Assembly (NCBI GenBank): GCA_026004495.1
Contig: BPJG01000001.1
Location: 208,750 to 272,749 of the forward strand
Origin: Candidatus Parcubacteria bacterium
GTDB lineage: Bacteria > Patescibacteriota > Minisyncoccia > UBA6257 > HR35
Reading direction: 5' to 3'
DNA: 64,000 bases
Each line of letters starts with the position of its first letter. Positions within the stretch are counted from its first letter, which is position 1. Made by a program: the position numbers and the translations under genes. Shown here in pieces: positions 4,753 to 44,517 of this stretch. Below the pieces are notes generated by a model. That model was not told the DNA's origin and did no database searches. It worked only from the letters and a program-made list of their open reading frames with translations.

Positions 4753-4764
4753 AATTTATGGCTT

Positions 4765-5070: not shown

Positions 5071-5115
5071 TTCTCTCTCTTTCTAATATTTAATATCGAC
5101 ACTATATTTTCTTTT

Positions 5116-27613: not shown

Positions 27614-27640
27614 TTTCTTTTTTATCAAAAATGAATAAAT

Positions 27641-28011
27641 AATCTTGGTAAGATTATAAGCCGGATTCTGTATCCTTAAAATTAAGGACAGCAATCATTT
27701 ATCTGGAACTTAGATTACTCAAAGTTTCAAGCGGTACTCCCAAATTAAATTGGGCACGACCTTGCACCCGGAAAAGAAGGAAACAATTTTCTGAATTACT
27801 TCAGAAAATAATGGAGTAGCCTAAAAATGACTTTTTAGACACCTCCATTCTTTTCACCTTTCTCCGATTTGAAAACTAGATAGTATAGTCTCTGTGCTTC
27901 CTTCTTAGGGCTTACGCCCTAGCTCCATTTCGGAGCTTTCCTTTTTAGGGTGTCCGGACTTTCCTCTCTTTAATATAAGAATTAAAGAGTGATTGCTTAT
28001 CCTACCAAGAT
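27641..28011 (-). ncRNA. rnpB: RNase P RNA (bacterial type A-like)
   Basis: Minus-strand sequence carries P4 5' strand AGGAAAGUCCGGAC and P4 3' strand ACAGAAUCCGGCUUA. P3 hairpin CUCUUUAAU...AUUAAAGAG. 5'/3' ends pair as a long P1 (AUCUUGGUAGGAUAAGC / GCUUAUAAUCUUACCAAGAU). ~370 nt, GC-enriched, ORF-free. Confidence 0.85.
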
Positions 28012-28528: not shown

Positions 28529-30097
28529 CTATTTTACGATAACTTTCAACTCAGATTTTTTTACATTACTTAAAGGCCAATAAGACTCAATAACAAAACT
28601 TTCATCGGTAGTAAATTCTACTTTTGTACTCTGACCCGGTTTTATGGGTTCAGTTTTAAACTTTTTACTTCTAAAATCTAAGCCACCATAATAAACATTT
28701 TGATTCTTGACAATTAAATAAAGAATAACTTTTGTATTTCGAGGAACTTTAATACTTGCTGGATAAAAACCATAATCATCTGCCTCCACTTTTAATTCTT
28801 TGATATTATTTAAAGAAACTGTTGATTGGGTTGTTGTGGTTAAGCTTATTGAACATTTATTTGTCCTTATCCAGCCCTCAGGAACATCGCAAGGTGTTGG
28901 AAATTCTTTACATTCAGAAGGATTTTGAGGATTATAGGCTGGAGCGATTACTTGAATACAGCTTTCTGGTTTTTCAGGCGCCAAAGAACTTTTAGGAATA
29001 ATTTCAAATGGTTTATCGCTCATATCACTTTCTTTTGATTGATCACCAATAATTTCAATCAGATAATAACCCCAATCTAAAGTTTTGTCTTGTAGGGTAG
29101 TTTGACCTTGCCATTGATATTCACCAGTATTAGGAATATTTTCGGCAATAATTATTAGCATTAGTTCAGGCATTGAACAAGCTGGTTGTGTGTAAAGACA
29201 AGCAATATAGGGTTTTAAATAAATACTTACTGTTTTATCTTTTGGTGCTACCCATTTTATTTTTTGATAAGAATCAATTGGCCAAACTTCTCCACCATTG
29301 GGTGAAATAACTCTTAATTTTGCTTCTTTTGGTGGTTGCGATGTTGAGATAATTTTTCTTACAATCAAAGCCTCAATGCCATAATTATCTTTGTCCATAA
29401 ATCCATAAACATTTATCTTGTCACCAACATTAAAATCATCTAATCCTGATCTTTGTCTATTTCTTTGAAGTAAAATTGTGTCATCTGTAATTTTAATTGT
29501 TAATTCTTTAAATAAAATTTGTCTCCTTAAATCTAAAGCACAAGGAAGGGAGATCTCACTATCTTCTGATTCAAACATTAAACATTTCCAGCTAATATCT
29601 CTAACTGCAAAAAGGATTGCTTTTGTATTTTCAATTCCTGGTTCTTTAATAATTCTTGTTATCCTTAAATTATTTAACTGGACAATAGCATCATCTTCTC
29701 TAATTTCATCAGGCAAAATTTTTTGAAAGATGTTGGGAGTTAGGGGAGTTTGAGTTGCTGGAATAACTGGTTGAATTCCCTTAGGTAAATTTTTTGGTGC
29801 TGGTATTGGAAGAAGCTTTTCTATTTCTGTTATTTGTTTTTCTTGAATTTCTTCTATTTCAATTGGCGGCTGTGTCTGATTAATCGAATATTGCTGAATT
29901 AATTTTTGTAAGATATCCAAAAAATTTATGGAAGCTTGTTTCTCTTGAATAGCTTGTTGATTAATCGAATATTGCTGACTTAATTTTTGTAAGATGTCCC
30001 CAATTTGATTTAAAAGATTTTGATCGACTTGAGTTGTCTGGGCAGAAACAAAACTAATGCCTATAAAAATTATTAGAAATAAAGCATATTTTTTCAT
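28529..30097 (-). CDS. Secreted repeat protein with C-terminal cupredoxin-like (copper-ligand-less) domain
   Basis: 522 aa. Signal peptide MKKYALFLIIFIGISFVSAQT. Duplicated peptide (ILQKL.QQYSINQ) encoded by an 81-bp tandem DNA repeat. C-terminal ~90 aa resembles the 24850..25485 cupredoxin fold (F.P..I.V....V.L..KN...EFTT) but lacks His/Cys/Met ligands. Confidence 0.55.
   Translation of the reverse strand: MKKYALFLIIFIGISFVSAQTTQVDQNLLNQIGDILQKLSQQYSINQQAIQEKQASINFLDILQKLIQQYSINQTQPPIEIEEIQEKQITEIEKLLPIPAPKNLPKGIQPVIPATQTPLTPNIFQKILPDEIREDDAIVQLNNLRITRIIKEPGIENTKAILFAVRDISWKCLMFESEDSEISLPCALDLRRQILFKELTIKITDDTILLQRNRQRSGLDDFNVGDKINVYGFMDKDNYGIEALIVRKIISTSQPPKEAKLRVISPNGGEVWPIDSYQKIKWVAPKDKTVSIYLKPYIACLYTQPACSMPELMLIIIAENIPNTGEYQWQGQTTLQDKTLDWGYYLIEIIGDQSKESDMSDKPFEIIPKSSLAPEKPESCIQVIAPAYNPQNPSECKEFPTPCDVPEGWIRTNKCSISLTTTTQSTVSLNNIKELKVEADDYGFYPASIKVPRNTKVILYLIVKNQNVYYGGLDFRSKKFKTEPIKPGQSTKVEFTTDESFVIESYWPLSNVKKSELKVIVK
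29876..29999. repeat. Intragenic tandem direct repeat, 2 copies of ~43 bp conserved core at 81-bp period
   Basis: ctgattaatcgaatattgctgaattaatttttgtaagatatcc / ttgattaatcgaatattgctgacttaatttttgtaagatgtcc; encodes the duplicated peptide in 28529..30097. Confidence 0.8.
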
Positions 30098-30140: not shown

Positions 30141-31037
30141 TCAAATATTTTTACAGATTTCTATTCCCTCTTCTAAGCTAATTTTTGGTTTCCACCCTAA
30201 AATTTTTCGTGCCAAGGAATTATCACCCAAAGTATGCCGTGGTTCTCCTTTTCTTTTTGGTAAATAATTTTTTTTGCCACCAATTAATTTAGCAACATAA
30301 TTGATTGAATGATTTTTACCATAACAAATATTAATTACTTCTCCTTTGCCAACCCTTTTACTTTTCATTGCTAAAATATTTGCTTCAATAACATCATCAA
30401 TATAAGTAAAATCTCTTGTTTGTTTGCCATCGCCATAAATTGTTAATGGCTTTCCTTCTTTTTTAAGTTTTAAAAATCTTCCAATAACCAAAGCATAGGG
30501 ACCTTCTGGATCCATTCTTGGACCATAAACATTAAAATATCTTAGAGAAACAGTTTCTAAATCATATAAACTTGAAAATAATTTGCAATAATATTCACCC
30601 ACTAATTTTTGTAAGGCATAAGGAGAAAGCGGATTAGGAACCATCGATTCTCTTAAGGGCAAGTTTTTTTGTTCTCCATAAACCGAAGAACTTGAAGAAT
30701 AAATTACTCTTTTAGCTTTATTTTTATCACTAGCATAAAGAACATTTAAGGTGCCATCAATATTGACTCTATGAGTTTCAATTGGTTTATCAATTGAAAG
30801 ATGTACTCTTGGCAAAGCGGCTGTATGGAAAACATAATCAACTCCTTTAAATAAAGGTAAAATTTTATCCAAATTACAAATATCAACTTTATAAAAAATA
30901 GCTTTAGGATTTAAATTTTCTTTTTTACCACCAGAAAGATTATCAATCACGATAACTTTATATCCTTCTTTAATCAATCTATCAACTAAATGACTGCCAA
31001 TAAATCCTGCTCCACCCGTAACTAAAATCTTTGCCAT
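30141..31037 (-). CDS. NAD-dependent nucleotide-sugar epimerase/dehydratase (GalE/WbpP-like SDR)
   Basis: TGGAGFIGSH Rossmann motif; catalytic YxxxK (YALQK); 298 aa. Confidence 0.8.
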   Translation of the reverse strand: MAKILVTGGAGFIGSHLVDRLIKEGYKVIVIDNLSGGKKENLNPKAIFYKVDICNLDKILPLFKGVDYVFHTAALPRVHLSIDKPIETHRVNIDGTLNVLYASDKNKAKRVIYSSSSSVYGEQKNLPLRESMVPNPLSPYALQKLVGEYYCKLFSSLYDLETVSLRYFNVYGPRMDPEGPYALVIGRFLKLKKEGKPLTIYGDGKQTRDFTYIDDVIEANILAMKSKRVGKGEVINICYGKNHSINYVAKLIGGKKNYLPKRKGEPRHTLGDNSLARKILGWKPKISLEEGIEICKNI

Positions 31038-31080
31038 AATTAAATTATAATATATCTTGCTATTTTGATAAAATTAAATT

Positions 31081-32163
31081 ATGAAAGTTTTAATTGTGAT
31101 CACACAAGGAGTAGTCGGAGGAGCGACAAATTCTGTTTATTTTTTAGCAAAAGGCTTAAAAGAAAAAAACATTGATGTTAAAGTTGGTTTTGGCGAAGGA
31201 GAATATTTGAAAGAAAAATTAGAAAAAGAAAATATTCCTTATATAAATTTTAAATGGCTGAAAAGAACCCATAATCCTTTAGCAAATTTATTTTTTATTT
31301 TTGAAATAAAAAGATTTTTAGATAAAAAAAAATTTGATGTTGTTCATTTTAATTCAACCAATGCTTTATTTGGATCTATTGGAGCAAAATTTTCTAAATC
31401 AAAACCAAAAACAATTTTTACTTTTCGCGGACTTTCAATTTTAGATCCTTATTATCAAAAAAATAAAATTTTAAAAACTATTTATTGGTGTATTTTTAAA
31501 TTTTTGCTTTTATTTATTGATGTTCCTGTCTTTGTCTCAAATCATAATTTAGAAATAACCAAAAAAATGAAATTAACTAATAAGGGAGTCGTAATTTATA
31601 ATGGAATTCCTGAGCCAGAATTTTTGGATAAAGAAACCTCAAAAAAATTTTTTGAAGAAAAATTAAAAATACCACTTGCAAATAAATTTATAATTGGATC
31701 AATTGGAAGGTTAGATTATCAAAAAAATTATGAATTTTTAATCCAAATTTTTCCTGAAATTCTAAAAACAAAAGAAAATGCAATTGCTATTATTATTGGC
31801 GAAGGAGAAGAAAGAAAAAAATATGAAAACTTAATTAAAAAACATAATTTACAAGATAAATTCTTTTTAATTGGCGAAATAAAAGATGCTTCAAGATATT
31901 TAAAAGCTTTTGATTCATTTGTTTTACCTTCTCGCTATGAAGGAATGTCAATAACTTTAATTGAAGCCTTATTTGCCCAAATTCCAATTTTAGCATCAGA
32001 TGTTGGAGGAAATAAAGAAATTATAGGAGAAAAATGTATATATGAATTTAATAATCAAAATGAATTTTTAACTAAATCTAAAAATCCCCAAATTCCACCA
32101 AAAGAAAAAATAAATGATTTTGAGATTAAAAACACAATTGATAATTATTTAAAAATTTACTAA
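31081..32163 (+). CDS. Glycosyltransferase family 1 (GT4-type)
   Basis: C-terminal EGMSITLIEALFAQIPILASDVGGNKEII (EX7E-type motif). Confidence 0.75.
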   Translation: MKVLIVITQGVVGGATNSVYFLAKGLKEKNIDVKVGFGEGEYLKEKLEKENIPYINFKWLKRTHNPLANLFFIFEIKRFLDKKKFDVVHFNSTNALFGSIGAKFSKSKPKTIFTFRGLSILDPYYQKNKILKTIYWCIFKFLLLFIDVPVFVSNHNLEITKKMKLTNKGVVIYNGIPEPEFLDKETSKKFFEEKLKIPLANKFIIGSIGRLDYQKNYEFLIQIFPEILKTKENAIAIIIGEGEERKKYENLIKKHNLQDKFFLIGEIKDASRYLKAFDSFVLPSRYEGMSITLIEALFAQIPILASDVGGNKEIIGEKCIYEFNNQNEFLTKSKNPQIPPKEKINDFEIKNTIDNYLKIY

Positions 32164-34043
32164 AGATAACGATTAGCCCATAATTGGAACATCAATAAAA
32201 ACCAAATTTTATTACTATTTTCCTTCCCTAAATAAAAATTTGTTTTTAGCTTATCAATAAAATCATAATTTAAAACATTATTTTGCTTGATAATATCTCT
32301 AGTTGTTAATTCATCTAATAACTTCTTAAGCTCAATTTTCAACCATTCATCTTGCGGAATTCCAAAGCCATGCTTTGGTCTTTCAAAAAGTTCTCTGGGG
32401 AGATATTTTGCTAAAAGTTTTTTCAATATATATTTGCCTGAATTTTTAGTAAATTTATATTTTAGCGGCAATGGTGCGACAAATTCTAAAATTTTATGAT
32501 CTAATAAGGGTTCTCTTGTCTCTAGAGCAACTGCCATACTCGCTCGATCAACTTTTACTAAAATATCTTCTGATAAGTAATATTTAGCATCAATCAACAT
32601 CCATTGCATTAATTTTGGCAACTTGGTTAATTTATTGTTTTCAATTGAAAAATTTATTTCACTACTTATTCTAAAATCAGGATTAACTAATTGGTTATAA
32701 TCATCTAAAAAATAGCTTGAAATATAAGAAAATCCCTCGTTAATATTTTTATATCTTAATAATTTCGAAGATTTTTCAATTCGATGTTGATTTTCACCTT
32801 TAACTTTCAAAATAAGCCTCCAAAATGGTTCTAAAAATTTATTAAAAACTAATCTATTTTCAAAAACAATTCTAAATATCCAATAACGATCATAACCACC
32901 AAAAAATTCATCTCCGCCATCACCACTTAAAATAACTTTAACTTTCTCACGAGCGATTTTTGAAACTAAATGAGTTGGAATGGCTGAAGAATCACCAAAT
33001 GGTTCATCATAAATTTCAGGTAATTTAGGAATAATTTCTAAAGCTTCATTAATTGAACAAAACATTTCAGTATGATCTGTACCTAAATATTCAGCAATTT
33101 TTTTAGCCCATTTGCTTTCATCATATTTTGTTTCATAAAAGCCAATCGTAAATGTTTTTAATTTTTGGGATATATTTCTTTGAAGTAAAGCAGTAACAGT
33201 TGAAGAATCAATACCTCCACTTAAAAATACACCAACAGGGACATCTGAAACCAATCTTAATTTAAAAGATTCAATTAAGATTTGCTCTAAATTTTCAATT
33301 AATTCATTTTCATCAAAATTTTTATCTTTGATCTCAAAATATTTTTCATAAACTTTACCTAAATCCCAATATTTTTCTTTTTTGAGATTTTTATTTTTAT
33401 CAATAATTAAATAACTGCCTGTTTCTAACTTATAAACATTCTGCCAAATCGAATAAGGATAAAAAATATAACCATATCTAAAAAATAAAAACAAACCCTC
33501 TTTACTAATTTCTTTTTTAAATTTGGGGTGCTTTAAAAATGCCTTAGTTTCAGAAGCGAACATAAAAAGTCCATTCGAAAAATAATAATATAATGGTTTC
33601 ACTCCAATTCTATCTCTAATTAAAATTAGTTCTTCCCTTCTCTTATCCCAAATAGCAATCGCAAACATGCCTCTAAATTTTGAAAGACAATCTAATCTCC
33701 AATGCTTATAAGCATAAATAATTACTTCCGTATCAGAATTAGACTTAAATTTATAACCAAAACCTTCTAATTCTTTTTTTATTTCTTGAAAATTATAAAT
33801 TTCGCCATTAAACACTACAACAATTTCATTTTTATCATCAATCATTGGCTGATGGCCTAAGGGCGACAAATCTAAAATTGAAAGTCTTCTATTTGCCAAT
33901 CCTAAACCTAAATCTTTTTCAAGATAATTTCCAGCATCATCAGGTCCTCCATGTTTTAAAACATCTCTCATTTGAGTCAAAACATTATCTAAATCATATT
34001 CTCCCTTATAATTAAAATCCCAAAATCCTGTTATACGGCACAT
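32160..34043 (-). CDS. asnB: Asparagine synthetase (glutamine-hydrolysing)-family amidotransferase
   Basis: N-terminal Cys nucleophile (MCRITG), PP-loop LSGGIDSSTV; 627 aa; glycan-cluster context suggests sugar/uronate amidation. Confidence 0.8.
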   Translation of the reverse strand: MCRITGFWDFNYKGEYDLDNVLTQMRDVLKHGGPDDAGNYLEKDLGLGLANRRLSILDLSPLGHQPMIDDKNEIVVVFNGEIYNFQEIKKELEGFGYKFKSNSDTEVIIYAYKHWRLDCLSKFRGMFAIAIWDKRREELILIRDRIGVKPLYYYFSNGLFMFASETKAFLKHPKFKKEISKEGLFLFFRYGYIFYPYSIWQNVYKLETGSYLIIDKNKNLKKEKYWDLGKVYEKYFEIKDKNFDENELIENLEQILIESFKLRLVSDVPVGVFLSGGIDSSTVTALLQRNISQKLKTFTIGFYETKYDESKWAKKIAEYLGTDHTEMFCSINEALEIIPKLPEIYDEPFGDSSAIPTHLVSKIAREKVKVILSGDGGDEFFGGYDRYWIFRIVFENRLVFNKFLEPFWRLILKVKGENQHRIEKSSKLLRYKNINEGFSYISSYFLDDYNQLVNPDFRISSEINFSIENNKLTKLPKLMQWMLIDAKYYLSEDILVKVDRASMAVALETREPLLDHKILEFVAPLPLKYKFTKNSGKYILKKLLAKYLPRELFERPKHGFGIPQDEWLKIELKKLLDELTTRDIIKQNNVLNYDFIDKLKTNFYLGKENSNKIWFLLMFQLWANRYL

Positions 34044-34083
34044 GAATACATTATACTTTTTATTTTTTCAAAATACTTTTTCC

Positions 34084-35280
34084 CTATATTATCTCCTTCC
34101 ATTTTAAAATAATATTTTTAATATCAAAATCTTTTGCTCTTTCAATGCTTAAATTTTTATACTTTTCAACTAAATAATTATTATTTAAAACTTTTTTGAG
34201 TGTTTCGATCCACATTTTTTCTTCGATTGTTAAATCATCTTTATGGTTTAAAAATCTATTTTGAAAAATAGGCATTAAAATTCCATACTGAGCAAATTCT
34301 GGTTCTTTAGTTTGAAAATTAAAATCAGTATCAGGAGCCAAAATCTCTCTTGGACCTGTACGACAATCAGAAGAAACTACCGGAACGCCATAAGCCATTG
34401 TTTCTACTAAAGCATTGGGGAAACCCTCAAATAAACTTGGAAAAATAAAAGCTTTAGAGTGAGCAATAAATTTATAAGGATTATTTTGAAAGCCTAAGAA
34501 ATAGACATCATAATCTTTAGTTAAATCATTTCTATCCCAAACAAAAGTTTTTAAATTAAGTCTTTGAGATAACTCAACTAAATAATTTTTTAATTCTCCT
34601 TCGCCTAAAATCACAAGTTTCAAATTAGGGAATTCTTTTTTAACTTCTTTAAAAATCCTTAATAAATACCATTGACCTTTTTGCTTAGTTAATCTACCTA
34701 CATTAATTAAGACTTCTTTTTGAAAAATAATCTCATATTCATCTAAAGGTTCTTTTATTTTTTCTTGAATTTCATTAAAGAAGATTGGATTATATATTAC
34801 CTTAATTTTTTCGGATGAAATGCTGAATGTTTTTATTAATTCATCTTTTATACCTTCTGAAACTGCTACAATTAAATTTGCTTTAGGATATAAAAATTTC
34901 GAAAGCAAATTATAAGGATGCAATTTAAATCTACCAAAAATTTGAGACATCCGAATTGAAACAATAGTTTTGTGCTTAGTAATTAAAGAAGTTAAAATAT
35001 TAACATAATTGCTTCTCTCTAAAAAAGAAATAATTACATCATCTGGATTAAGATATTTTTTAAGTCTTAAAGAATGAATAGGGATAAATAAAGTTTTCAA
35101 AATAGCATTTGTTTTGTAATTGTGTTTTAATAAAAAAACTACTTTTTCCTTAGGCACTTCATATTTTATATCTTTTTCTAAAAGAAATATTTTGTCAAAA
35201 TCTAAAGTTCGGAATAAATTAAAAGCAACTTTTTCTGCCCCACCGCCATAAAGTGAATTTATTAAAATAAATTTTTTCAT
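34084..35280 (-). CDS. Glycosyltransferase family 1 (GT4-type)
   Basis: EGFPNALVETMAYGVPVVSSD motif; 398 aa. Confidence 0.75.
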   Translation of the reverse strand: MKKFILINSLYGGGAEKVAFNLFRTLDFDKIFLLEKDIKYEVPKEKVVFLLKHNYKTNAILKTLFIPIHSLRLKKYLNPDDVIISFLERSNYVNILTSLITKHKTIVSIRMSQIFGRFKLHPYNLLSKFLYPKANLIVAVSEGIKDELIKTFSISSEKIKVIYNPIFFNEIQEKIKEPLDEYEIIFQKEVLINVGRLTKQKGQWYLLRIFKEVKKEFPNLKLVILGEGELKNYLVELSQRLNLKTFVWDRNDLTKDYDVYFLGFQNNPYKFIAHSKAFIFPSLFEGFPNALVETMAYGVPVVSSDCRTGPREILAPDTDFNFQTKEPEFAQYGILMPIFQNRFLNHKDDLTIEEKMWIETLKKVLNNNYLVEKYKNLSIERAKDFDIKNIILKWKEII

Positions 35281-36227
35281 TTAATTTTACCTTGAAAATA
35301 AATATGAGCACCTTGAATAAAAGGATAAATAAAAAGTGAAATCGGGATTAGAAAAAGGGTCCTAAAAAATTTTAAAGTTTTAATAAGATTATTTTTAAAA
35401 AGCTTATTCTTATTGTTTTTGTTTAAATAAATTTTTTCTCTTAATTTCTTTTTTAAATTAAAAGTATATTTACCAAATAACCAAATTTCTATAAGAGTTG
35501 CGATTTCAGTCAAACTTTTAGTATCGCTAATTTCGACAGAAAATCCCTGATGTTCAAAAAAATTTTTCAAAACCTTTTTAGAAAATCTCAAGAAATGATG
35601 AGGTGGTAAATCTGTTTTGTCATATTTACCTTGATATAAATTAATAAAAACTGACTCTCTATTAGGCACTGTTCCAACAATATAACCCTCTGGTTTTAAT
35701 AATATTTTTATTTGTTCTAAAAATTCTTTAGGTTTATCTTGATGTTCTAAAACTTCAAAAAATGTGATAACATCAAATTTCAAATCTTTTTCTTTAGCCA
35801 AATCAACAAATTCTTCTAAGCTCATCGGAAATACATTTTTTAAACCAAATTTATTTTTTGCCACTTCAATACTTTTTTTATCAAAATCAATGCCCCAGAC
35901 TTCAAATCCTAATTTTTGAGCCTCTTTTATAAAAACTCCATCACCACAACCTATATCTAATAACCTACCTTGATTTAAGAAAAATTTTTTGAAAAATGGG
36001 ATATGCCATTCTTGAATGTTTCTAATACCTGCATGATATAAATCATAAGCAATTTCACCTTCCTCTTCATAAAATTCTGGAATAATTTTTAAAGGCTCCC
36101 ACCATTCTCCGTCGCAATTTAGGCAATGATAAAGTTTATATTCTTGATTATTAAAATCAGAAATATATTTTTCTAAATATTTATCTGAATTTATTTCAAA
36201 ATCACATAATGGACATTTGTATTTCAT
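35277..36227 (-). CDS. Class I SAM-dependent methyltransferase with N-terminal Zn-ribbon
   Basis: CPLC...CLNC cysteines; motif I LLDIGCGDGVF; 316 aa. Confidence 0.7.
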   Translation of the reverse strand: MKYKCPLCDFEINSDKYLEKYISDFNNQEYKLYHCLNCDGEWWEPLKIIPEFYEEEGEIAYDLYHAGIRNIQEWHIPFFKKFFLNQGRLLDIGCGDGVFIKEAQKLGFEVWGIDFDKKSIEVAKNKFGLKNVFPMSLEEFVDLAKEKDLKFDVITFFEVLEHQDKPKEFLEQIKILLKPEGYIVGTVPNRESVFINLYQGKYDKTDLPPHHFLRFSKKVLKNFFEHQGFSVEISDTKSLTEIATLIEIWLFGKYTFNLKKKLREKIYLNKNNKNKLFKNNLIKTLKFFRTLFLIPISLFIYPFIQGAHIYFQGKIK

Positions 36228-37000
36228 TTTTGAAAAAAACTTAATGTTTTATAAGTCATAATTTTTATGATTGTCGAAATTAATTTGAAAGGACAATTTT
36301 TAAATAAATCTTTATAAAAATTTTTAAAAAATAAATAATGAACTGTTGCTAATCTTTTATAGTTTTTACTTTTAACCGATAATCTGTCTTCTAATTTATT
36401 ATTGTAAATTCTTGCAATTTTATTAGAAAAATAAGCTCTATATCCTCTTTTTAGAATTTTAATCCAAGTAATAGCTTCTCCTCCTTTTATGTTTTCTATA
36501 AATTTTTCTTCTAAAAAAACTTCTTTTTTAATTATAGGCAGAGCCTCGCCTTTAATTTTACATATAAAATCTTTATAAGTTAAATAGCCTTCATAATTTT
36601 TAATATTTATAGGTATATTACCATCTAAATCTTTGCAAGCAAAAATAAAAAAAGAAACATCAGGCAATTTTTGGATATAACTATAAATAATTTCTAAAGC
36701 ATCGACTGTTAATTCATCATCTGAATCTAAAAAAATTAACCAATCACCAATCGCTTTTTCTGAGCCAAAATTACGGGCAACATTAGGGCTTGAATTCCTT
36801 TCTAATTTAAAATATTTTATTTTTGATGATTGTTGTAAATATTTCTGCACCACATCCTTAGTATTATCTATTGATCCATCGTCAACAATTATCATTTCCC
36901 AATTATCAAAATTTTGTCTTAAGACACTTTCAATCGATTTATTAATTATGTAAACTCGATTATAAGTAGGGGTAATGATACTAAAAAATGCTCTATTCAT
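36224..37000 (-). CDS. Glycosyltransferase family 2
   Basis: FSIITPTYNR...IIVDDGSIDNT...DSDD (DXD) motifs. Confidence 0.8.
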   Translation of the reverse strand: MNRAFFSIITPTYNRVYIINKSIESVLRQNFDNWEMIIVDDGSIDNTKDVVQKYLQQSSKIKYFKLERNSSPNVARNFGSEKAIGDWLIFLDSDDELTVDALEIIYSYIQKLPDVSFFIFACKDLDGNIPINIKNYEGYLTYKDFICKIKGEALPIIKKEVFLEEKFIENIKGGEAITWIKILKRGYRAYFSNKIARIYNNKLEDRLSVKSKNYKRLATVHYLFFKNFYKDLFKNCPFKLISTIIKIMTYKTLSFFQK

Positions 37001-37917
37001 TATTTTAAAAAAATAAAATTATCAAAACCATTGGTGATCAAAGATAAATCCCCATATTTTTCTTCTAATTCTCCATCTTTAGTAATGAAATAAGATTTAT
37101 AGTTCCAATCTCTTAATAAATTCACTGCTCTCATTGATAATTCACCATTATTATCTTTACCCCATACTTCTAAACAAATCATTGGAGAATTGTTTTTAAG
37201 AAATTTTTCTGCTCCTTTTAAAACTTCGTACTCTGCTCCCTCTACATCAATTTTTAAAAAAGTTGGCAGAGTGTGTTTTTCTTCGTAAATATATTTATCT
37301 AATGTGGTTGAAAATACCTCTTTTATGGTCAAATTTTTAAAATGTAAAATATTTGACTTAATAGAACTTAATCCATATAAATCACCAGGTATGTAAAGTT
37401 TTAGTAAGCCCTCTTTGCCTGATAAAGCAACTTCATTTATAAAAACATTATTTTTATCTTTTAAATTTAATCTTAGGCTTTCTATACATTCTTTTATTGG
37501 CTCAAAACTATGAACTTCTTTACAAAATTCTAAAGCTAAATACGTATAATAGCCAAAATTTGCTCCGATATCATAAAATACATCTTCTGATTTAAGATTT
37601 CTAATTAAAAATTTGGTTAATTTCAATTCATTCGAATCTCTTAAAAATCCAAAATACAACATCGAGCTACTCGAATTTCCTCCTTTCAAAATAATATCTT
37701 TTAATTTCAGAATTTTAATTTTCTTTTTAATTGGAAATAGTCTGAAGATTAAAAAAGAGAAAGTAGAAAAAGGAGAATACAAAAATCTTAATAAGTTTCT
37801 TTTAAAACGAGAAAATAAATCTATTCCCTGCCAGCCTTCTTTATTCCATTCCTGAAAAAACTTTTCAAAATTATCAATTTCTTTTAATAAAAATTTTCTT
37901 TTTTGATCCAAATACAT
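37000..37917 (-). CDS. FkbM-family methyltransferase
   Basis: FYDIGANFGYYTYLA motif; paralog of 38939..39919. Confidence 0.7.
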   Translation of the reverse strand: MYLDQKRKFLLKEIDNFEKFFQEWNKEGWQGIDLFSRFKRNLLRFLYSPFSTFSFLIFRLFPIKKKIKILKLKDIILKGGNSSSSMLYFGFLRDSNELKLTKFLIRNLKSEDVFYDIGANFGYYTYLALEFCKEVHSFEPIKECIESLRLNLKDKNNVFINEVALSGKEGLLKLYIPGDLYGLSSIKSNILHFKNLTIKEVFSTTLDKYIYEEKHTLPTFLKIDVEGAEYEVLKGAEKFLKNNSPMICLEVWGKDNNGELSMRAVNLLRDWNYKSYFITKDGELEEKYGDLSLITNGFDNFIFLK

Positions 37918-37929
37918 TTTTTAATTTTA

Positions 37930-38967
37930 TCAAAAAACATACCACTGAACAAAGTATTTATTTTGAAAATAGCCCTTTTTATCCTTGTAATAATCCCAAT
38001 CTATATTTTTAGAAATTAAAATTAATGGAATATCTCCTAGGGCTGAAGCTAAAATACTAAAACTACTTTGACAACCCAAAATTATACTAGTTTTTGATAA
38101 AAGCCATAAATCTTCTACTGGATTTTTAGTCAATGGCTTATAAATATTAAAACCAGAAAACTTTACTAGATCAACATCGCCATTAGAACAAATAACAAAA
38201 CAAACTTTATCAAGATTAAGGTTTATAAATTTACAAATTTCATTAAATGACTTTATTAATGTTTCGTAATCATTTATAGAAAAATAAAACAAAGGGTCAT
38301 TTTCATATTTCCAATCACCATCTAATAAATGTTCTTTTTGTCTTAAATGAACACCAATTAAATAATCATATTGTGTTCCTAATTCATTGATTATTTCATT
38401 TACTTTATTTATATATTTTTCTTTAGGTTTAAAGAATTCTAAAATCTCTTGGCGATATTTTTTTATACCTTCAGGATTACGAAATAGCCAACCAGAAAAA
38501 TAAATAATTTTTACTTTAGGATCATTCTCTAATTCTAATAGTTTGCCTTCCGATGGTTTTGTCGGTGGTAAAAGATATACATCTAATGGTGACCGAGGAA
38601 TAAGCCCAGCATAAATAAAATTTTTTCCCTTTACTATTTCTAAAATGAAATAAAAAATCAAATAAAGAAGTTTAAAAATTTTTCTGATTATATAAAAGCC
38701 TAATCGTCTTTTTCTAAAATTTAATGGTTCTAATATATCAGAAAAAAAATTAAAGCCTTTATAAAATACTAAGTCAATAAAAAAGTTCTTTATCTTAAAA
38801 TCAAAATATTTTGTATACTCATAAAATTTATAACTATCAAATTCATAGCCTTTCTCTAAGGCATAAGCCAGTAATGAAATATGAACCCAAAGCTGATTAG
38901 CTAATTGAGAATCATTATGTTTAACTAAAATAACTTTTTTACAGACGTGGGGTTTTTGTGAAAACAT
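37930..38967 (-). CDS. Hypothetical protein, possible glycosyltransferase
   Basis: 345 aa ORF inside the glycan cluster; no confident family motif. Confidence 0.4.
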   Translation of the reverse strand: MFSQKPHVCKKVILVKHNDSQLANQLWVHISLLAYALEKGYEFDSYKFYEYTKYFDFKIKNFFIDLVFYKGFNFFSDILEPLNFRKRRLGFYIIRKIFKLLYLIFYFILEIVKGKNFIYAGLIPRSPLDVYLLPPTKPSEGKLLELENDPKVKIIYFSGWLFRNPEGIKKYRQEILEFFKPKEKYINKVNEIINELGTQYDYLIGVHLRQKEHLLDGDWKYENDPLFYFSINDYETLIKSFNEICKFINLNLDKVCFVICSNGDVDLVKFSGFNIYKPLTKNPVEDLWLLSKTSIILGCQSSFSILASALGDIPLILISKNIDWDYYKDKKGYFQNKYFVQWYVF

Positions 38968-39919
38968 AGTTTAAATCATTATATTCCTTTAAATAGATTA
39001 TTTTTTTATCAACCTGTTCTAATTCTCCATCTAGATTAATTTTATAAACAAATTTAAATCCTAAATTTTCTAATATTTCCACTGCTTTATATGAAAGATT
39101 TTCTTTATCGCTCCATACTTCCATAATAATCAGCAAAGAAGATTCTGAACTTTCCAGAAAATTTTTAGCTCCTTTTAAAACTATACTTTCTGCACCTTCA
39201 ACATCTAATTTAATAATAGTAGGAGGATGATGATTTTCTAAATATCTATCTAAAGTTATTGTTTTAATTTTAATCGGTTCTTTTCTAAATATAGCCTTAC
39301 AGCTATCATAGACATTATTTACAATTGTAGAAGCTCCAGTGCCATATTTACCAACATAAATATTTGTATAACCTTCATTATCAGACAATGCGAGATTGTT
39401 TAAAAAACAGTTTGAATCATTAGCTAAATTTTCTTTAATATATTCAAAAATAAATGGGAGGGGTTCAAAAATATGCACTTCTTTACAAAAAATAGAGGCT
39501 AAATAGCTATAATAACCAATGTTTGCTCCGATATCATAAAATATATCTTCTGATTGTAGATTTTTTACTAAAAATTTAGTAAGTTTTATATCGGGTAGAG
39601 ATGGAGGGCATCCAAAATGTATAAGTAATAAGCTACTTAAATCGTCTAAAGGTAACTGGATTTCTTTCATATTAAAAATATGAGTATGTAGGCTTTTATT
39701 TCGTAAAATAAATTTAGGTATAATTCTATTCAAAATATTGATAATTAAGGCAGGTAAATAGAATTGAGGACAATTTAGTAGCTTTAATAATCTGTCTTTA
39801 ATCCTATAACTTCTTAAAGTTACTATCTTTTTTAAACAATCTGTATCTACTTTCTTTTGTAAATAATTTAGAATTAATTTTCTCTTATCTTCTATTTCCA
39901 TGATAAATTTCTCCAACAA
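38939..39919 (-). CDS. FkbM-family methyltransferase (second copy)
   Basis: FYDIGANIGYYSYLASIFCKEVHIFEP, near-identical motif block to 37000..37917. Confidence 0.7.
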   Translation of the reverse strand: MLEKFIMEIEDKRKLILNYLQKKVDTDCLKKIVTLRSYRIKDRLLKLLNCPQFYLPALIINILNRIIPKFILRNKSLHTHIFNMKEIQLPLDDLSSLLLIHFGCPPSLPDIKLTKFLVKNLQSEDIFYDIGANIGYYSYLASIFCKEVHIFEPLPFIFEYIKENLANDSNCFLNNLALSDNEGYTNIYVGKYGTGASTIVNNVYDSCKAIFRKEPIKIKTITLDRYLENHHPPTIIKLDVEGAESIVLKGAKNFLESSESSLLIIMEVWSDKENLSYKAVEILENLGFKFVYKINLDGELEQVDKKIIYLKEYNDLNYVFTKTPRL

Positions 39920-41166
39920 TTAATTATTATTTTATTTTGGGGTAATTTTGATTTTATAATTTTATCTGGCAACATTAGAATTATAAGCTTGTTTTTTATA
40001 GCTGATTCTAGGTTATAAGCATAATCTATATCATTACTAAAAATTTTCTTCGTTTCTTCGGTGGCAAGTTCTATTGGATCATAAACTGTGATTTTGAGGT
40101 TTTTATTTTTCTTTAATAAATATTTTATCAAATTTATCGAAGCTGACTCTTCAATAACATAAGTTTTTGGTTTATAAGCTAAACCGATTATGGTTAAAGA
40201 TTTTAATTTATTTTCTTTTAAGATGCTTAAAATTTTGTCTCCTAAAAATTTTGTCTGAAACTCATTGATTTTATGCGCTGCCATAGGAATTAAGGCATCA
40301 ATTTTAGAAAATCTTTTAGCAAAATTATTGAAAGCTTTATTATCTCGAGGAAAGCAAGGACCGCCATAAGCAGTTCCATATCGAAAATAATAAGGGCCAA
40401 TTCTTTTATCTTTCCCCATCGCTTCAGTAATTTTATCAATTTCAGCACCAGGAATTCTTTCACAAATATTACCAAGCATATTAGCAAAACTAATTCTTGT
40501 TGTAATGTATGAATTAATTGCTATTTTTGTAATTTCAGCGCTAACAATTGACATTCGAGCTATAAATGGATTATTTAAACAAACTTTTTTCCATAAACTT
40601 TCAATAATATCACCTGCTTGTTTATTATTTTCTCCGATTAGAACTAAATCAGGTTCTAAAATTCCTTTGATAATATCTCCAATAGCAATAAAAGTCGGGT
40701 TATAAATAACAGTGAAATCTTGATTAAATTTTTTACCCGATAATTTTTCAATAAAAGGAATTATTTCATTTTGAGTTGAAAGTGGGCTTACAGTTGAAGT
40801 GATAGCAAAAATTTTAAATTGTTTAGCTTGTTTTAGATTGTCAGCTAATTGTTTGATTGCTTTTTTTAAATATTCATTAGAAAAACTTCCGTCTTTATTT
40901 GAAGGAGTTGGTACAATAAAAAAATAAATATCTGAAAAATTAAAAACTTCTTTAGGATCAGTCGTAGCCCTTAGTTTATTTTTAGATTTATCAATTAATC
41001 CTTGCAGGTTTGGTTCTAAAAATGGTGCCTGGTGATTATTTATTTTATTTACAATATTCTCATTAATATCACAACCTAAAACATTAAAACCGCGATAAGC
41101 AAAACAAGTGGCAAAACAACTTCCTAATTTTCCTAAACCGAATACTCCGATATTTTTTACTTTCAT
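39892..41166 (-). CDS. Nucleotide-sugar dehydrogenase (UDP-glucose/GDP-mannose dehydrogenase family), full length
   Basis: N-terminal GxGxxG (IGVFGLGKLGS); catalytic Cys motif GGPCFPRD; 424 aa. Confidence 0.8.
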   Translation of the reverse strand: MKVKNIGVFGLGKLGSCFATCFAYRGFNVLGCDINENIVNKINNHQAPFLEPNLQGLIDKSKNKLRATTDPKEVFNFSDIYFFIVPTPSNKDGSFSNEYLKKAIKQLADNLKQAKQFKIFAITSTVSPLSTQNEIIPFIEKLSGKKFNQDFTVIYNPTFIAIGDIIKGILEPDLVLIGENNKQAGDIIESLWKKVCLNNPFIARMSIVSAEITKIAINSYITTRISFANMLGNICERIPGAEIDKITEAMGKDKRIGPYYFRYGTAYGGPCFPRDNKAFNNFAKRFSKIDALIPMAAHKINEFQTKFLGDKILSILKENKLKSLTIIGLAYKPKTYVIEESASINLIKYLLKKNKNLKITVYDPIELATEETKKIFSNDIDYAYNLESAIKNKLIILMLPDKIIKSKLPQNKIIINCWRNLSWK

Positions 41167-42140
41167 ATTCTTCTTTGTTTTTTAAGTTGCTCTGCGATCC
41201 AGTGATAAGTTTTTTCAATGCCTTGTCTTAAAGAAATTTTTGGTTCCCAGTTTATTTTTTGACGAGCCAAAGTTAAATCTGCATTTCGACCGCGAACTCC
41301 AGTTGGGCCAGAAATGTGTTTTAATTTTAAATTCTTACCAGCAATTTCCATTATCATTTTAGCTAAACTATTAATTGAAATCAATTCTTCTGAGCCAATA
41401 TTAATTGGTCCTAAAAAATCTGAATCCATTAATTTTCTTACGCCCTCTAAAGCATCGTCAATATAAAGAAAACTTCTTGTCTGTTCGCCATCACCCCAAA
41501 TTTCAATTTCCTCTCCATCTTTAGCTAAAGCAACCTTACGACAAAGAGCTGCCGGTGCTTTTTCTCTTCCACCTTCATAAGTACCTTCTGGTCCAAAAAT
41601 ATTATGAAAACGAGCAATACGAACATTAATTCGATAATTTCTATTAAATGCTAAATACATTCTTTCTGAAAAAAGTTTTTCCCAACCATATTCAGAATCA
41701 GGTCCGGCTGGATAAGCATCTGATTCTTTTAATCCCGGATTATTTGGATCTGTTTGCTTATATTCCGGATAAATACAAGCTGATGAAGAATAAAAAACTT
41801 TACCCTTGAATTTTATTTCTTTTAGATAATAAAGACAGTTTAAATTAATTAAAGCTGAATTATGCATAATATCAGCATCATTTTCACCAGTAAAGACAAA
41901 TCCAGCTCCGCCCATATCTGCTGCCAATTGATAAACTTCATCAAAATCTCTATCTAAAATTTTTACCCAAACATTTGGGTCTCTTAAATCCCCAATAACA
42001 AAATCATCAACCTCATCTTTTGCAGAATATTCGGGATATTTTAAATCAACAGATCTAACCCAATAACCTTCATTTTTTAATCGACGAGCAAGATGATGCC
42101 CAATAAAACCACCACCTCCACAAACTAATGCTTTTTTCAT
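41163..42140 (-). CDS. GDP-mannose 3,5-epimerase-like SDR
   Basis: Collinear with plant GME: GGGGFIGHH, LAADMGGAGF (GME LAADMGGMGF), SSACIYPEYKQ, RFHNIFGPEGTYEGGREKAPAALCRK (GME RFHNIYGPFGTWKGGREKAPAAFCRK), IWGDGEQTRSF, GPTGVRGRNAD. Confidence 0.75.
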   Translation of the reverse strand: MKKALVCGGGGFIGHHLARRLKNEGYWVRSVDLKYPEYSAKDEVDDFVIGDLRDPNVWVKILDRDFDEVYQLAADMGGAGFVFTGENDADIMHNSALINLNCLYYLKEIKFKGKVFYSSSACIYPEYKQTDPNNPGLKESDAYPAGPDSEYGWEKLFSERMYLAFNRNYRINVRIARFHNIFGPEGTYEGGREKAPAALCRKVALAKDGEEIEIWGDGEQTRSFLYIDDALEGVRKLMDSDFLGPINIGSEELISINSLAKMIMEIAGKNLKLKHISGPTGVRGRNADLTLARQKINWEPKISLRQGIEKTYHWIAEQLKKQRRI

Positions 42141-42186
42141 AATAAATAAAAAATTAATTTCGGCTCTTATGATAATTATATCATAA

Positions 42187-43014
42187 TTAGCTCTTATTAT
42201 TTAACCAGTCTTGTTGTAATTTTTTAATAAGTTTTTGGTTTTTTAGATATTTATAATTCAATTTCCAGACAAATTGGAAAAGTTCAGGGTTTATTTTTAA
42301 TTTTTTATATAAATATATCAGGGCATTTAAATCTTTAGGTAAACATTTACCACCAAAACCTCGATAACCTTCATAAAAAACTTTAAGATGAGTTTTACCC
42401 AGTCTTGGTTCATTTTCCAAGATTTCTCTTAATTCATCGTAGTTTATTTTTAGTTTTTGGCACAAATCATAAACTTGATTAGCAAAGATAACTTTTAAAG
42501 CTAAGAAATCATTAATTGTCAATTTTGCTAATTCAGAAATTTTTGAGTCAACAATTTTTGTATAAGAGGCTTTAGGCAGAAGTTGAAGAATTTTTTCAGC
42601 TAAATTTTTTGATTTTTGAGTATAGCCGACTAACTGGATAACTGGCTTGACGAAATCTTCATACGGATATTTTTCTCTTAAAAATTCAGGATTATGAAGA
42701 AATTGATGAATTTTATACTTTTTTTGAAAATATTCGATTGTGCCAGGAAGGAGTGTTGATTTAACAATGAATACTTTTGGAGTTTTGAAATATTTAATGT
42801 TTTCTTCTAAGGCTGATAAATCATAACCTGTTTTTGGGCTGTAAGGAGTTGGCAAGCAAAGAAAAATAATTTTTGCTTTATTAACTTCTTCTAAGCTACC
42901 AATATTTTTAAATTTATCATAACCATAAACTTCAAATTTTTCCTTTTTCAGCCAATCAAATAAAGTTTGGCCAACAATACCTAAGCCAATTATTCCAATT
43001 TTTTGTTGTTTCAT
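42187..43014 (-). CDS. Truncated nucleotide-sugar dehydrogenase-family protein (NAD-binding + central domain only)
   Basis: IGIIGLGIVG Rossmann; GGKCLPKD catalytic-Cys motif; 275 aa, no C-terminal UDP/GDP-binding domain. Confidence 0.6.
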   Translation of the reverse strand: MKQQKIGIIGLGIVGQTLFDWLKKEKFEVYGYDKFKNIGSLEEVNKAKIIFLCLPTPYSPKTGYDLSALEENIKYFKTPKVFIVKSTLLPGTIEYFQKKYKIHQFLHNPEFLREKYPYEDFVKPVIQLVGYTQKSKNLAEKILQLLPKASYTKIVDSKISELAKLTINDFLALKVIFANQVYDLCQKLKINYDELREILENEPRLGKTHLKVFYEGYRGFGGKCLPKDLNALIYLYKKLKINPELFQFVWKLNYKYLKNQKLIKKLQQDWLNNKS

Positions 43015-43280
43015 TTTAGAAGTTTATAAATCCAGTTATGATGACCGATTAAATGAAAAATGGCTTTTTTATTTCCTGCAAAAGAAAAAATAATCCTGTA
43101 TTTTCTATCTACTCGAAACGACCATAAATTTTTTAGAGAATGCAATTTTTCTACTTTTAAAATCGGATTAAACGGTTGTCTTTCAAATAATCTAATCTTT
43201 TTAAAAGTCTTCTTTTTTATTGAATCTGGCAATATATCAAAAGTTTTCTCAAATTTTCTAGTATAAATAATTTCTATCAT
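43011..43280 (-). CDS. Type II toxin, RelE/ParE (YoeB-like) family
   Basis: 89 aa; KFEKTF...WSFRV..YRIIF...IGHH pattern; start overlaps upstream antitoxin stop (ATGA). Confidence 0.7.
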   Translation of the reverse strand: MIEIIYTRKFEKTFDILPDSIKKKTFKKIRLFERQPFNPILKVEKLHSLKNLWSFRVDRKYRIIFSFAGNKKAIFHLIGHHNWIYKLLK

Positions 43281-43513
43281 TAAATCAAATTCTTATATTT
43301 TCTATAAAGTTCTTTAATATTTTTCACTCTACCCTTTTTATAATCGTTAATTGATTCTTTAAGAGATTCTAAAAAATCTGGATTATAAAAACCAAATAAA
43401 TCTGCCAATTGTTCAAACTTCTCAGCATCAATTTTTATTATATATTTATCCTTAGTTTTTTTAATTTCCACTTGTAATTGAGGCATTATTTGATAAATTT
43501 TTAATTTTGACAA
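43280..43513 (-). CDS. Antitoxin partner of RelE-like toxin
   Basis: 77 aa ORF immediately upstream and translationally coupled to the toxin. Confidence 0.55.
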   Translation of the reverse strand: MSKLKIYQIMPQLQVEIKKTKDKYIIKIDAEKFEQLADLFGFYNPDFLESLKESINDYKKGRVKNIKELYRKYKNLI

Positions 43514-43735: not shown

Positions 43736-44127
43736 TTAAAAATCGTTTATTTTTAAAAATCTTTTATTTAAAAAATCGAGTAATTGAATTTCTTTAACCT
43801 TTTTAAAATCTGTTATATCTTTAGTAACCAATATTTGTTTGTAATAAATAGCAGTTGCTGCGATTATCGCATCTCCTATTTTTAAATTGTATCTCCTTTT
43901 TAATTCGGCAGCTAATTCGCTAATATCATCGTTGATATAAATTTTGCTAAATTTATTTAAAAAATTTTTGATTACTAAAATATCTCCGTCTTTTAATTTA
44001 GGATAAGATAAAATTTCAATAAAAGATATGAATGAAATAAATAATGGCGTATTTTTATACCATAAATTTTCCAATAATCTTACTATCTATTTTTTTGTTT
44101 TGGAGATAATAAATTAAGATGTTACTA
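43736..44127 (-). pseudogene. PIN-domain (VapC-like) toxin, frameshifted
   Basis: N-terminus MLIDSNILIYYL (PIN D-x-N signature) in one frame starting at an ATG overlapping the antitoxin stop. Remainder (….GDAIIAATAIYYKQILVTKDITDF) in another frame; shift near 44040-44060. Confidence 0.55.
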
Positions 44128-44299: not shown

Positions 44300-44383
44300 A
44301 GACTAATTATAACAAAAAATTTATAACTAAATTAAATTCTTGTTTTTTATAAAGTCCATTAATATTTTTTGTTCTTCCCTCTT

Positions 44384-44517
44384 TATAATCTCTCTATCAC
44401 TTTTACACTTTTAATAAAATCTTCATTATATAAACCTAAGGCGTTCATCAGCCTTTCTCATTTATTTATATCAATAACTATTTTATTTTTATTAATTTTT
44501 ATATCTAAAGTTGCCAT
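44384..44517 (-). pseudogene. AbrB/MazE (SpoVT-AbrB fold)-like antitoxin with in-frame TGA
   Basis: MATLDIKINKNKIVIDINK-TGA-ERLMNALGLYNEDFIKSVKVIERL*; TGA at 44458..44460; other genes in the window use TGA as stop. Confidence 0.35.

Follow-up and report, generated by a model that had tools for sequence, protein, structure and literature searches.

The stretch of DNA considered here, hereafter called the window, comprises 64,000 nucleotides of contig BPJG01000001.1 (positions 208,750 to 272,749 of the forward strand) from the assembly GCA_026004495.1 of a Candidatus Parcubacteria bacterium. Between positions 30141 and 43014 of this window there are 12 closely spaced genes, 11 of them on the minus strand, that serve the synthesis of nucleotide sugars and glycans (Table 1); these include a GDP-mannose 3,5-epimerase (GME, also abbreviated GM35E), a nucleotide-sugar dehydrogenase coupled to it and a divergent glycosyltransferase with a fucosyltransferase fold. 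Gene families were assigned with Pfam and NCBIfam, and the open reading frames (ORFs) coincide exactly with those of a preliminary description of this DNA. Every gene named in that description was confirmed, i.e., the glycosyltransferases (GTs), the FkbM proteins, the zinc-ribbon methyltransferase, the AsnB-like amidotransferase and the GalE-like SDR by their Pfam and NCBIfam matches; nevertheless, its inventory covers 11 of the 12 ORFs and omits the one at 37930–38967, a fourth glycosyltransferase. The toxin-antitoxin genes that it had placed at the end of the cluster are also real, and consist of a RelE/ParE-like toxin, a 77-residue ORF and a short PIN-domain protein. From position 43513 to 32160, thirteen genes follow each other on the minus strand, i.e., two toxin-antitoxin genes and 11 of the 12 cluster genes, and these are separated by gaps of at most 46 bp or overlap by 1 to 29 bp, which is the layout of one operon. 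The toxin-antitoxin pair heads this operon, and the stop of the toxin gene overlaps the start of the short dehydrogenase gene by 4 bp. The GT4 gene at 31081–32163 is the sole cluster gene on the plus strand, and the GalE-like gene stands apart and follows separately. Scans for promoters and terminators gave no excess over shuffled sequences in the AT-rich DNA of this region, the GC content being approx. 0.26 throughout the window. On the left, the cluster is flanked by genes for RNase P RNA, nucleoside-diphosphate kinase, NusB, RNase III, a Mur ligase and FtsW, and on the right by those for superoxide dismutase (SOD), a branched-polyamine synthase, a CofD-like protein, TyrRS, RNase J and EF-G. 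For comparison, contigs of relatives were fetched, which are designated here by L numbers; the neighbourhood of GME was surveyed in a set of 90 GME loci.

Table 1. Genes of the glycan cluster and associated features. Positions refer to the window, except where a relative's locus is named.
Feature	Position	Strand	Basis of assignment
GalE/WbpP/TviC-like NDP-sugar (nucleoside diphosphate sugar) 4-epimerase	30141..31037	-	Epimerase 1e-66
GT4 glycosyltransferase	31081..32163	+	Glycos_transf_1 1.2e-31; Glyco_transf_4 1.4e-17; convergent with AsnB-type gene
AsnB-type glutamine amidotransferase	32160..34043	-	Asn_synthase 4.7e-95; GATase_7 1.4e-46; N-terminal Met-Cys (Cys2 nucleophile)
GT4 glycosyltransferase	34084..35280	-	Glycos_transf_1 9.6e-27
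Class I S-adenosylmethionine methyltransferase with N-terminal CxxC...CxxC zinc ribbon	35277..36227	-	Methyltransf_23 6.6e-25; Cys pairs in translation
GT2 glycosyltransferase	36224..37000	-	PF00535 9.6e-35
FkbM-family methyltransferase 1	37000..37917	-	PF05050 1.3e-20; TIGR01444 101 bits
Divergent GT11-like glycosyltransferase, predicted fucosyltransferase fold, 345 aa	37930..38967	-	Homologues, AlphaFold2 model, Foldseek, hhalign
FkbM-family methyltransferase 2	38939..39919	-	TIGR01444 88 bits
Three-domain nucleotide-sugar 6-dehydrogenase, 424 aa	39892..41166	-	Pfam N-terminal, central and C-terminal domains
GDP-mannose 3,5-epimerase (GME/GM35E) orthologue, 325 aa	41163..42140	-	phmmer against PDB, catalytic residues, neighbour-joining tree
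Two-domain UGDH-family protein, 275 aa	42187..43014	-	Pfam N-terminal and central domains; PDB alignment
RelE/ParE-type toxin	43011-43280	-	ParE_like 25.7 bits (cut-off 24.4); ParE_toxin 24.9 (cut-off 23)
Putative antitoxin, 77 aa	43280-43513	-	Small upstream ORF ending where toxin starts
PIN-domain (VapC-like) protein, N-terminally short	43736..44074	-	PF01850 2e-12, match from profile position 29
Linker-bearing secreted/cupredoxin-like proteins	24850-25485 (+); 28529-30097 (-); 46445-46855 (-); 45242-45685 (+)		
Class I methyltransferase after clade dehydrogenase, in relatives	L091 7298-8125; L093 7319-8092; L094 7331-9046		

When the GME-like protein was compared with all PDB sequences using phmmer, its five best matches were plant GDP-mannose 3,5-epimerases with 316–322 bits (322 bits and E = 4.6e-95 for the Arabidopsis enzyme, 2c59). 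The next family, the UDP-glucuronate decarboxylases (UXS), reached 108 bits, and GalE, GDP-fucose synthase (GMER) and the dTDP-glucose dehydratases (RmlB) scored lower still. The window protein is 48% identical to Arabidopsis GME over 314 residues, and all eight fingerprint residues of GM35E are kept: S120, C122, Y151 and K155 align with S143, C145, Y174 and K178 of the plant enzyme, and N180, K194, R222 and R285 with N203, K217, R243 and R306. These represent the S/Y/K triad, the Cys/Lys acid-base pair, the Arg that acidifies the Cys, the diphosphate-binding Arg and a conserved Asn. The residue criteria that distinguish GM35E from GalE and GDP-fucose synthase were taken from the literature, where it is described that GMER has a His as the base in the place of the Lys of GM35E, and a Lys in the place of the Cys-acidifying Arg (PMC8787198). 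A neighbour-joining (NJ) tree was built from 18 prokaryotic GMEs and that of Arabidopsis, together with the GalE-like SDR of the window and 34 further SDRs of the fetched loci; in it, a GME clade that includes the plant enzyme was recovered in 100 of 100 bootstraps. The scores obtained with a hidden Markov model were bimodal: the GMEs exceeded 480 bits, and none of the remaining SDRs scored above 132 bits. The protein clusters with the GMEs and not with the UDP-glucuronate decarboxylases or the dTDP-glucose dehydratases, and therefore is a GME, as the preliminary description had proposed from a set of sequence motifs that are indeed there. It is a bona fide orthologue in which the catalytic apparatus is complete.

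The same description had called this enzyme rare in bacteria, which is overstated. In 2019, when the first bacterial GM35E was characterized, UniProt contained only 18 bacterial candidates (PMC6678494). Our scan of one representative genome per GTDB species recovered at least 585 confirmed GME relatives from many phyla; the best 80 of these, with 63–70% identity to the window protein, are spread over more than a dozen phyla such as Patescibacteria, Bacteroidota, Planctomycetota, Acidobacteriota, Chloroflexota, Proteobacteria, Thermotogae and archaea, with Marinoscillum, Emticicia and Bradyrhizobium among the cultured genera. The 120 best homologue clusters are all at least 69% identical to it and include Patescibacteria, an Asgard archaeon and Deinococcus ruber. 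GME in prokaryotes is then a minority gene, yet widespread and already known. The window protein has in common with Arabidopsis GME and with MfGM35E, an enzyme of the thermophile Methylacidiphilum fumariolicum that is about 50% identical to the Arabidopsis protein (PMC6678494), the extended-SDR fold, the GxxGxxG motif and the catalytic residues. In contrast with plant GME it lacks N- and C-terminal extensions (325 versus 377 residues), and its gene lies in a glycan operon of a bacterium of the candidate phyla radiation (CPR), coupled to a dehydrogenase, instead of in an ascorbate pathway or a lipopolysaccharide (LPS) context.

The start of the gene for this 424-residue dehydrogenase overlaps the GME stop by 4 bp, and the two genes are translationally coupled. 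The same 4-bp overlap is present in L027 (Planctomycetia) and L040 (Chloroflexi); the two genes adjoin in L008, L064 and L094, and they are one to three genes apart in L036, L038, L068 and L077. Among PDB sequences the dehydrogenase scores 200 bits with 3gg2, an uncharacterized Porphyromonas enzyme, 177 bits with AlgD and about 173 bits with UDP-glucose dehydrogenase, compared with 300–440 bits versus the dehydrogenases that neighbour GME in other phyla, i.e., in Planctomycetia, Chloroflexi, Omnitrophota, Gammaproteobacteria, Desulfobacterales and Bacteroidota. In a small NJ tree the GME-linked dehydrogenases form a clade with 100% bootstrap support that grouped with AlgD in 62% of the replicates and with the UDP-glucose dehydrogenases in 7%; in the 90 GME loci this clade is represented by 11 proteins versus 6 canonical UDP-glucose dehydrogenases. 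The three-domain build and the catalytic Cys, Lys, Asn and Asp, all of them kept in the window protein, are common to AlgD and the bacterial UDP-glucose 6-dehydrogenases; unlike in these enzymes, to which it is only 30–35% identical, the window protein belongs to a separate clade and has the motif YNP[ET]FIA[LI]G. The canonical form of this motif is NPEFL[KR]EG, and the first Glu of NPE...EG is the water-activating Glu of UDP-glucose dehydrogenases. The wider GME-linked clade has YNPEFIALG, and the subclade of the window protein (34 sequence clusters, at least 71% identity) has YNPTFIAIG at residues ~150–158, where the first Glu is replaced by a conserved Thr; the conserved glutamates of NPE...EG are not kept in the window protein. 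A Y-Y/F-x-R motif that precedes the catalytic Cys is common to the GME-linked clade and AlgD. An attempt to separate UDP from GDP specificity by PDB and NCBIfam scores was discarded, given that these scores do not distinguish them, and the public automatic annotation of the clade proteins is UDP-glucose 6-dehydrogenase.

The association was also examined in reverse, with four clade members picked independently of GME. GME is beside one of them (L094), the other three have no GME within 6 kb, and one of the four sits with a GalE-like SDR that is 40% identical to that of the window. From this sampling and from that of GT11-like homologues, which show partial links only, GME-dehydrogenase and GME-GT11 were rejected as universal pairs. 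In three of the four sampled loci, which lie in other phyla, a class I (Methyltransf_23) methyltransferase gene follows and overlaps the stop of the dehydrogenase gene; one of these loci, L093, adjoins flagellin genes.

Another characteristic feature of the cluster is the protein encoded by the previously omitted gene, which is flanked on both sides by the FkbM genes. This 345-residue protein has no Pfam match even at E <= 10, and none in NCBIfam. Its homologues at 35–42% identity match PF01531 (GT11), and some of them are named alpha-1,2-fucosyltransferase, a function for which Helicobacter pylori FutC and Escherichia coli WbsJ are GT11 examples. An AlphaFold2 model built with 37 homologues has a pLDDT of 90, and when the PDB was searched with Foldseek, the top matches of this model were AtFUT1, FUT8, POFUT1 and NodZ, with a probability of 1.0 and a TM of about 0.48; the 50 best structural matches are all GDP-fucose-dependent transferases. 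The family profile aligned by hhalign with a Pfam-positive GT11 protein (89% probability, E = 2.4e-6) across the HxRRGDY and SxFSWWA donor motifs. Within the family, H207 and R209 are invariant and correspond to HxRRGD, and the C-terminal SSFxxxA is present. Given the PF01531 homologues, the fold matches and the profile alignment over the donor motifs, the protein is assigned, largely from its model, as a predicted fourth glycosyltransferase of the fucosyltransferase superfamily. Like the GT11 enzymes, it would have a GT-B-like fucosyltransferase fold, with HxRRGD-like and C-terminal motifs; it differs from them in that the first motif reads H-L-R-Q followed by a six-residue insertion before G-D-W, and in that a long hydrophobic helix is inserted at residues 89–116. 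In rhizobial Nod factors, fucosylation by NodZ is followed by O-methylation of the fucose by a NoeI-type enzyme of the FkbM family. The pairing in the window of a fucosyltransferase-fold enzyme, with NodZ among its structural matches, and FkbM-family methyltransferases is reminiscent of this system, from which it differs in the acceptor, in the biological context and in the presence of two FkbM paralogues.

A Pfam GT11 gene is directly downstream of GME in L002, and a homologue of the GT11-like gene (35% identity, E = 2e-65) has this position in L003. The profile of the GT11-like subfamily is narrow, as it detected the family in only a small number of the 90 GME loci and did not pick up the GT11 gene of L002; in its place, the genes immediately downstream of GME were all scanned with Pfam, and of these 61 neighbours four are GT11 and six are GT4, the commonest family. 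The 313-residue protein that follows GME in L001 and L004 was also considered, and it was rejected as a homologue of the GT11-like family (hhalign probability 0.1%). Fucosyltransferases are reported to accept GDP-L-galactose (PMC8787198), no gene for GDP-fucose synthesis is present in the cluster or in the 64-kb window, and GME adjoins GT11-type genes in L002 and L003; for these reasons, transfer of the GME product is the most economical reading for the GT11-like enzyme. From these sequence comparisons we infer that it is likely an L-galactose transferase, whose probable donor is GDP-L-galactose or GDP-L-gulose and not GDP-L-fucose.

Upstream of GME, the cluster begins with the 275-residue dehydrogenase. 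The preliminary description had counted two nucleotide-sugar dehydrogenases; both proteins do belong to the UDPG/GDP-Man dehydrogenase family, but the shorter one lacks the C-terminal nucleotide-sugar-binding domain, which was not found with Pfam. It retains NPEFLRE and GGKCLPKD, and the possibility that it is a truncated pseudogene was rejected because its short length is the norm of its family, of which 309 representatives were detected at E <= 1e-30, the best 150 being mostly about 245–295 residues long. These short dehydrogenases form a clade with 100% bootstrap support, and homologues are present in the patescibacterial GME loci L003, L006 and L007. A few members of this family are fused to a GT2 enzyme, a sugar nucleotidyltransferase (NTP_transferase), an SDR, an APS kinase or a D-Ala-D-Ala ligase, and two contain inteins. 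Regarding the methyltransferases, both FkbM proteins exceed the TIGR01444 cut-off of 37.7 bits and are 46% identical to each other; their genes have in common a direct repeat of 125 nt (37499–37623 and 39462–39586, 82% identity) that indicates, judging from the sequence, a fairly recent duplication, and L008 has only one FkbM gene. The AsnB-type protein scores 480 bits with TIGR01536 (cut-off 267), and its best NCBIfam match is TIGR03108 with 556 bits, under the cut-off of 817 for this family. AsnB-like enzymes occur likewise among glycosyltransferases and uronic-acid genes in clusters for O antigen or exopolysaccharide, e.g., WbpS of Pseudomonas aeruginosa O6 and the XrtA/PEP-CTERM systems of TIGR03108; unlike these, the window belongs to a monoderm CPR bacterium without LPS, and no PEP-CTERM/exosortase system was seen in it. 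The best PDB matches of the GalE-like protein are the UDP-glucose 4-epimerase of Thermotoga maritima (238 bits), WbpP (202 bits) and the UDP-glucuronate 4-epimerase 6zl6 (189 bits). An initiating phosphoglycosyltransferase, a flippase, a polymerase and an oligosaccharyltransferase were not found in the cluster.

Taken as a whole, we consider it probable, albeit with considerable reserve, that this native and largely single-operon cluster makes the precursors of a small modified cell-surface heteroglycan and assembles it. GME would convert GDP-D-mannose into GDP-L-galactose and/or GDP-L-gulose, and the GT11-like enzyme would transfer the resulting L-hexose, i.e., a 6-hydroxy analogue of L-fucose. 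The FkbM enzymes may O-methylate this L-hexose or a neighbouring sugar, the dehydrogenase would supply a hexuronic acid, possibly 4-epimerized by the GalE-like SDR, and the AsnB-like enzyme would turn the carboxyl group of the uronate into an amide. The remaining residues would be added by the GT2 and GT4 enzymes, and the carrier and the final acceptor (a lipid-linked polymer, a wall glycopolymer, a pilin or another secreted protein) would be encoded elsewhere. The methylated and amidated glycan with uronic acid and L-hexose that the preliminary description had predicted is thus a reasonable reading of the gene set. Several points weigh against this pathway. Gene families, catalytic residues and synteny were observed directly, and from them every substrate assignment, like the acceptor, is inferred; furthermore, the gene survey covers 64 kb of a contig of 634 kb. 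The GT11-like protein itself does not reach any Pfam threshold, and distant homologues of it occur without GME nearby (L095 and L096). The dehydrogenase is about equidistant from AlgD and the UDP-glucose dehydrogenases and, in the subclade of the window, has a Thr at the position of the catalytic Glu of the latter; besides, outside the set selected by GME, GME was beside only one of the four clade members sampled (L094).

Since distant homologues of the GT11-like protein lack a nearby GME, its donor could be GDP-L-fucose made elsewhere. On this basis, the enzyme would be an ordinary alpha-1,2-fucosyltransferase, and the product of GME would be destined for the GT4 or GT2 enzymes or have another purpose. 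The annotation of its homologues and their match to PF01531 agree with this possibility, as do a related cluster of Paceibacterota that has a GT11 gene without GME within 7 kb, and the fact that GT4 and not GT11 is the commonest immediate neighbour of GME. Nevertheless, GME is the sole maker of a GDP-L-sugar in the vicinity, genes for GDP-fucose synthesis were not found in the cluster or the window, and GME and GT11-type genes directly adjoin in two other loci (L002 and L003), so that we see an ordinary fucosyltransferase as a possible but rather doubtful explanation. A different departure from the favoured pathway concerns the dehydrogenase, which together with GME could form a single GDP-sugar pathway leading to a GDP-L-hexuronic acid that would later be amidated by the AsnB-like enzyme. 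GDP-L-galactose or GDP-L-gulose would be oxidized at C6 to GDP-L-galacturonate or GDP-L-guluronate, or else GDP-mannuronate would be formed first and then epimerized, and the 424-residue protein would not be a UDP-glucose dehydrogenase. This agrees with the position of its fully supported clade beside GME in at least eight lineages and with the 4-bp overlap in three unrelated phyla, as well as with its predominance over the canonical enzymes in the GME loci (11 versus 6), the motif in common with AlgD before the catalytic Cys and the grouping with AlgD (62% versus 7% of the replicates), although this last support is only moderate and comes from a small tree. On the other hand, three of the four independently sampled clade members lack GME within 6 kb and one is accompanied by a GalE-like SDR, and the automatic annotation favours UDP-glucose. 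The chemistry is also a difficulty, since the oxidation of a uronate at C4 by an SDR risks decarboxylation, as in UXS-type chemistry. A literature search found no paper describing such a nucleotide sugar, and nothing relevant on a GDP-L-uronate pathway or on the coupling of GME with a dehydrogenase. A GDP-L-hexuronic route is accordingly regarded as unlikely. A broader version, in which the pair is a conserved GDP-L-hexuronate route, the GT11-fold protein is a natural L-galactosyl or L-gulosyl transferase that installs the L-sugars, these are then methylated or amidated, and the change from Glu to Thr marks an altered catalytic step, seems to us more unlikely still.

It also had to be considered whether the cluster is native, as in the pathway that we favour, or a recently acquired and horizontally exchanged island bounded by toxin-antitoxin modules, as held in the preliminary description. 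The toxin-antitoxin genes at one end agree with an island, and so do the great variation in content of the glycan loci of relatives (L001–L006) and the identity of 63–70% of the best 80 GMEs across distant phyla, which is compatible with past lateral spread. However, the GC content is 0.24–0.30 inside the cluster and the same outside of it. The cluster and the remainder of the window have a tetranucleotide correlation of 0.982, slightly below most of the window yet within the range of the other 12.9-kb segments (0.975–0.997), and the native giant-pilin region at 10–20 kb deviates more than the cluster does. There is no integrase among the ORFs in and around the cluster that were scanned against Pfam and NCBIfam, no tRNA is adjacent (the nearest are at 25489 and 55407), and a repeat search around the cluster gave no convincing att-like flanking direct repeats. 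The closest homologues listed for GME, the dehydrogenase and the GT11-like protein all belong to Parcubacteria/Minisyncoccia. In L008, a JGI contig whose GME is 87% identical, the order is GME, dehydrogenase, GT11-like gene, FkbM, GT2, methyltransferase, AsnB, GT4 and a GT4 on the opposite strand; the same order is found in L010, a sibling metagenome-assembled genome (MAG; KatS3mg093), where several genes are fragmented. The split genes of L010 are those for the short dehydrogenase, GME, FkbM and GT4 (697–2039, 4309–5251 and 10842–11989), either by assembly frameshifts or by decay of the locus. The cluster is thereby shared with L008 and L010, but the flanks of L008 differ from those of the window, and in L007 a SOD gene, which is also near the cluster of the window, is followed by the short dehydrogenase and then GME. 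In more distant Patescibacteria, GME is surrounded by other glycan genes, often Wzy_C, Bac_transf and Wzx, that the cluster of the window does not have. The composition and synteny comparisons thus did not bear out the island, which we judge very improbable; the cluster looks like a lineage-specific, slowly diversifying glycan locus and a native operon, not a recent insertion.

With respect to possible acceptors, for which the preliminary description had suggested pilin-like surface proteins or an S-layer, the window encodes two giant proteins that resemble pilins, and several secreted proteins whose linkers are rich in Thr and Ser; nothing ties these to the cluster. The giant proteins, of 1080 and 1940 residues, are encoded on the minus strand at 11006–14248 and 14245–20067, start with the type IV prepilin-like sequence MKKGFTLIE and do not match any Pfam family; another, smaller ORF, at 55905–56429, is pseudopilin-like. 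Linkers rich in Thr, Ser and Pro, e.g., TTTTSTSTISTP, are present in three proteins with cupredoxin-like domains and in one small secreted protein that flank the cluster, and by their composition they look like O-glycosylation tracts. Close to the head of the operon, a 48-nt part of the putative antitoxin gene (43298–43345) is repeated with 83% identity about 1 kb away (44343–44390), beside the truncated PIN gene, which suggests the remnant of a second toxin-antitoxin module. Farther from the cluster, the RNase P RNA (170 bits, 27641–28008, minus strand) overlaps the 5' end of an ORF at 27029–27694 on the same strand that encodes 221 residues from a TTG start and contains the NDK domain; its annotated start is probably too far upstream. 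A TrwB/VirD4-like coupling ATPase is encoded at 1225–3660 on the minus strand. The branched-chain polyamine synthase (48097–49077, minus strand; BpsA_C, 1.2e-81) belongs to a family known mainly from thermophiles, and together with the KatS3mg locus tags, its gene points to a hot environment for this MAG.

GME, the GT11-like protein and the 424-residue dehydrogenase are each 100% identical to proteins of a Candidatus Parcubacteria MAG with KatS3mg094 locus tags. This MAG was already deposited in GenBank, where its annotations are generic; each of the enzyme families is well known, and current understanding is not overturned by these results. CPR/Patescibacteria live attached to other microbes, and very little is known about their surface glycans; in Saccharibacteria, the glycosylation of pili has been called unexplored (PMC11623550). 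A review on GM35E has called for new stable prokaryotic enzymes, and likewise for transferases whose natural donors are the GM35E products (PMC8787198). As leads for glyco-engineering, the locus offers a GME whose source is probably a hot-spring organism, a GT11-like transferase with a genetic link to this GME and a clade of GME-linked dehydrogenases. For the biology of these organisms, the cluster outlines, as a concrete and conserved candidate pathway, how Parcubacteria may make a glycan that contains an L-hexose and is methylated and amidated.

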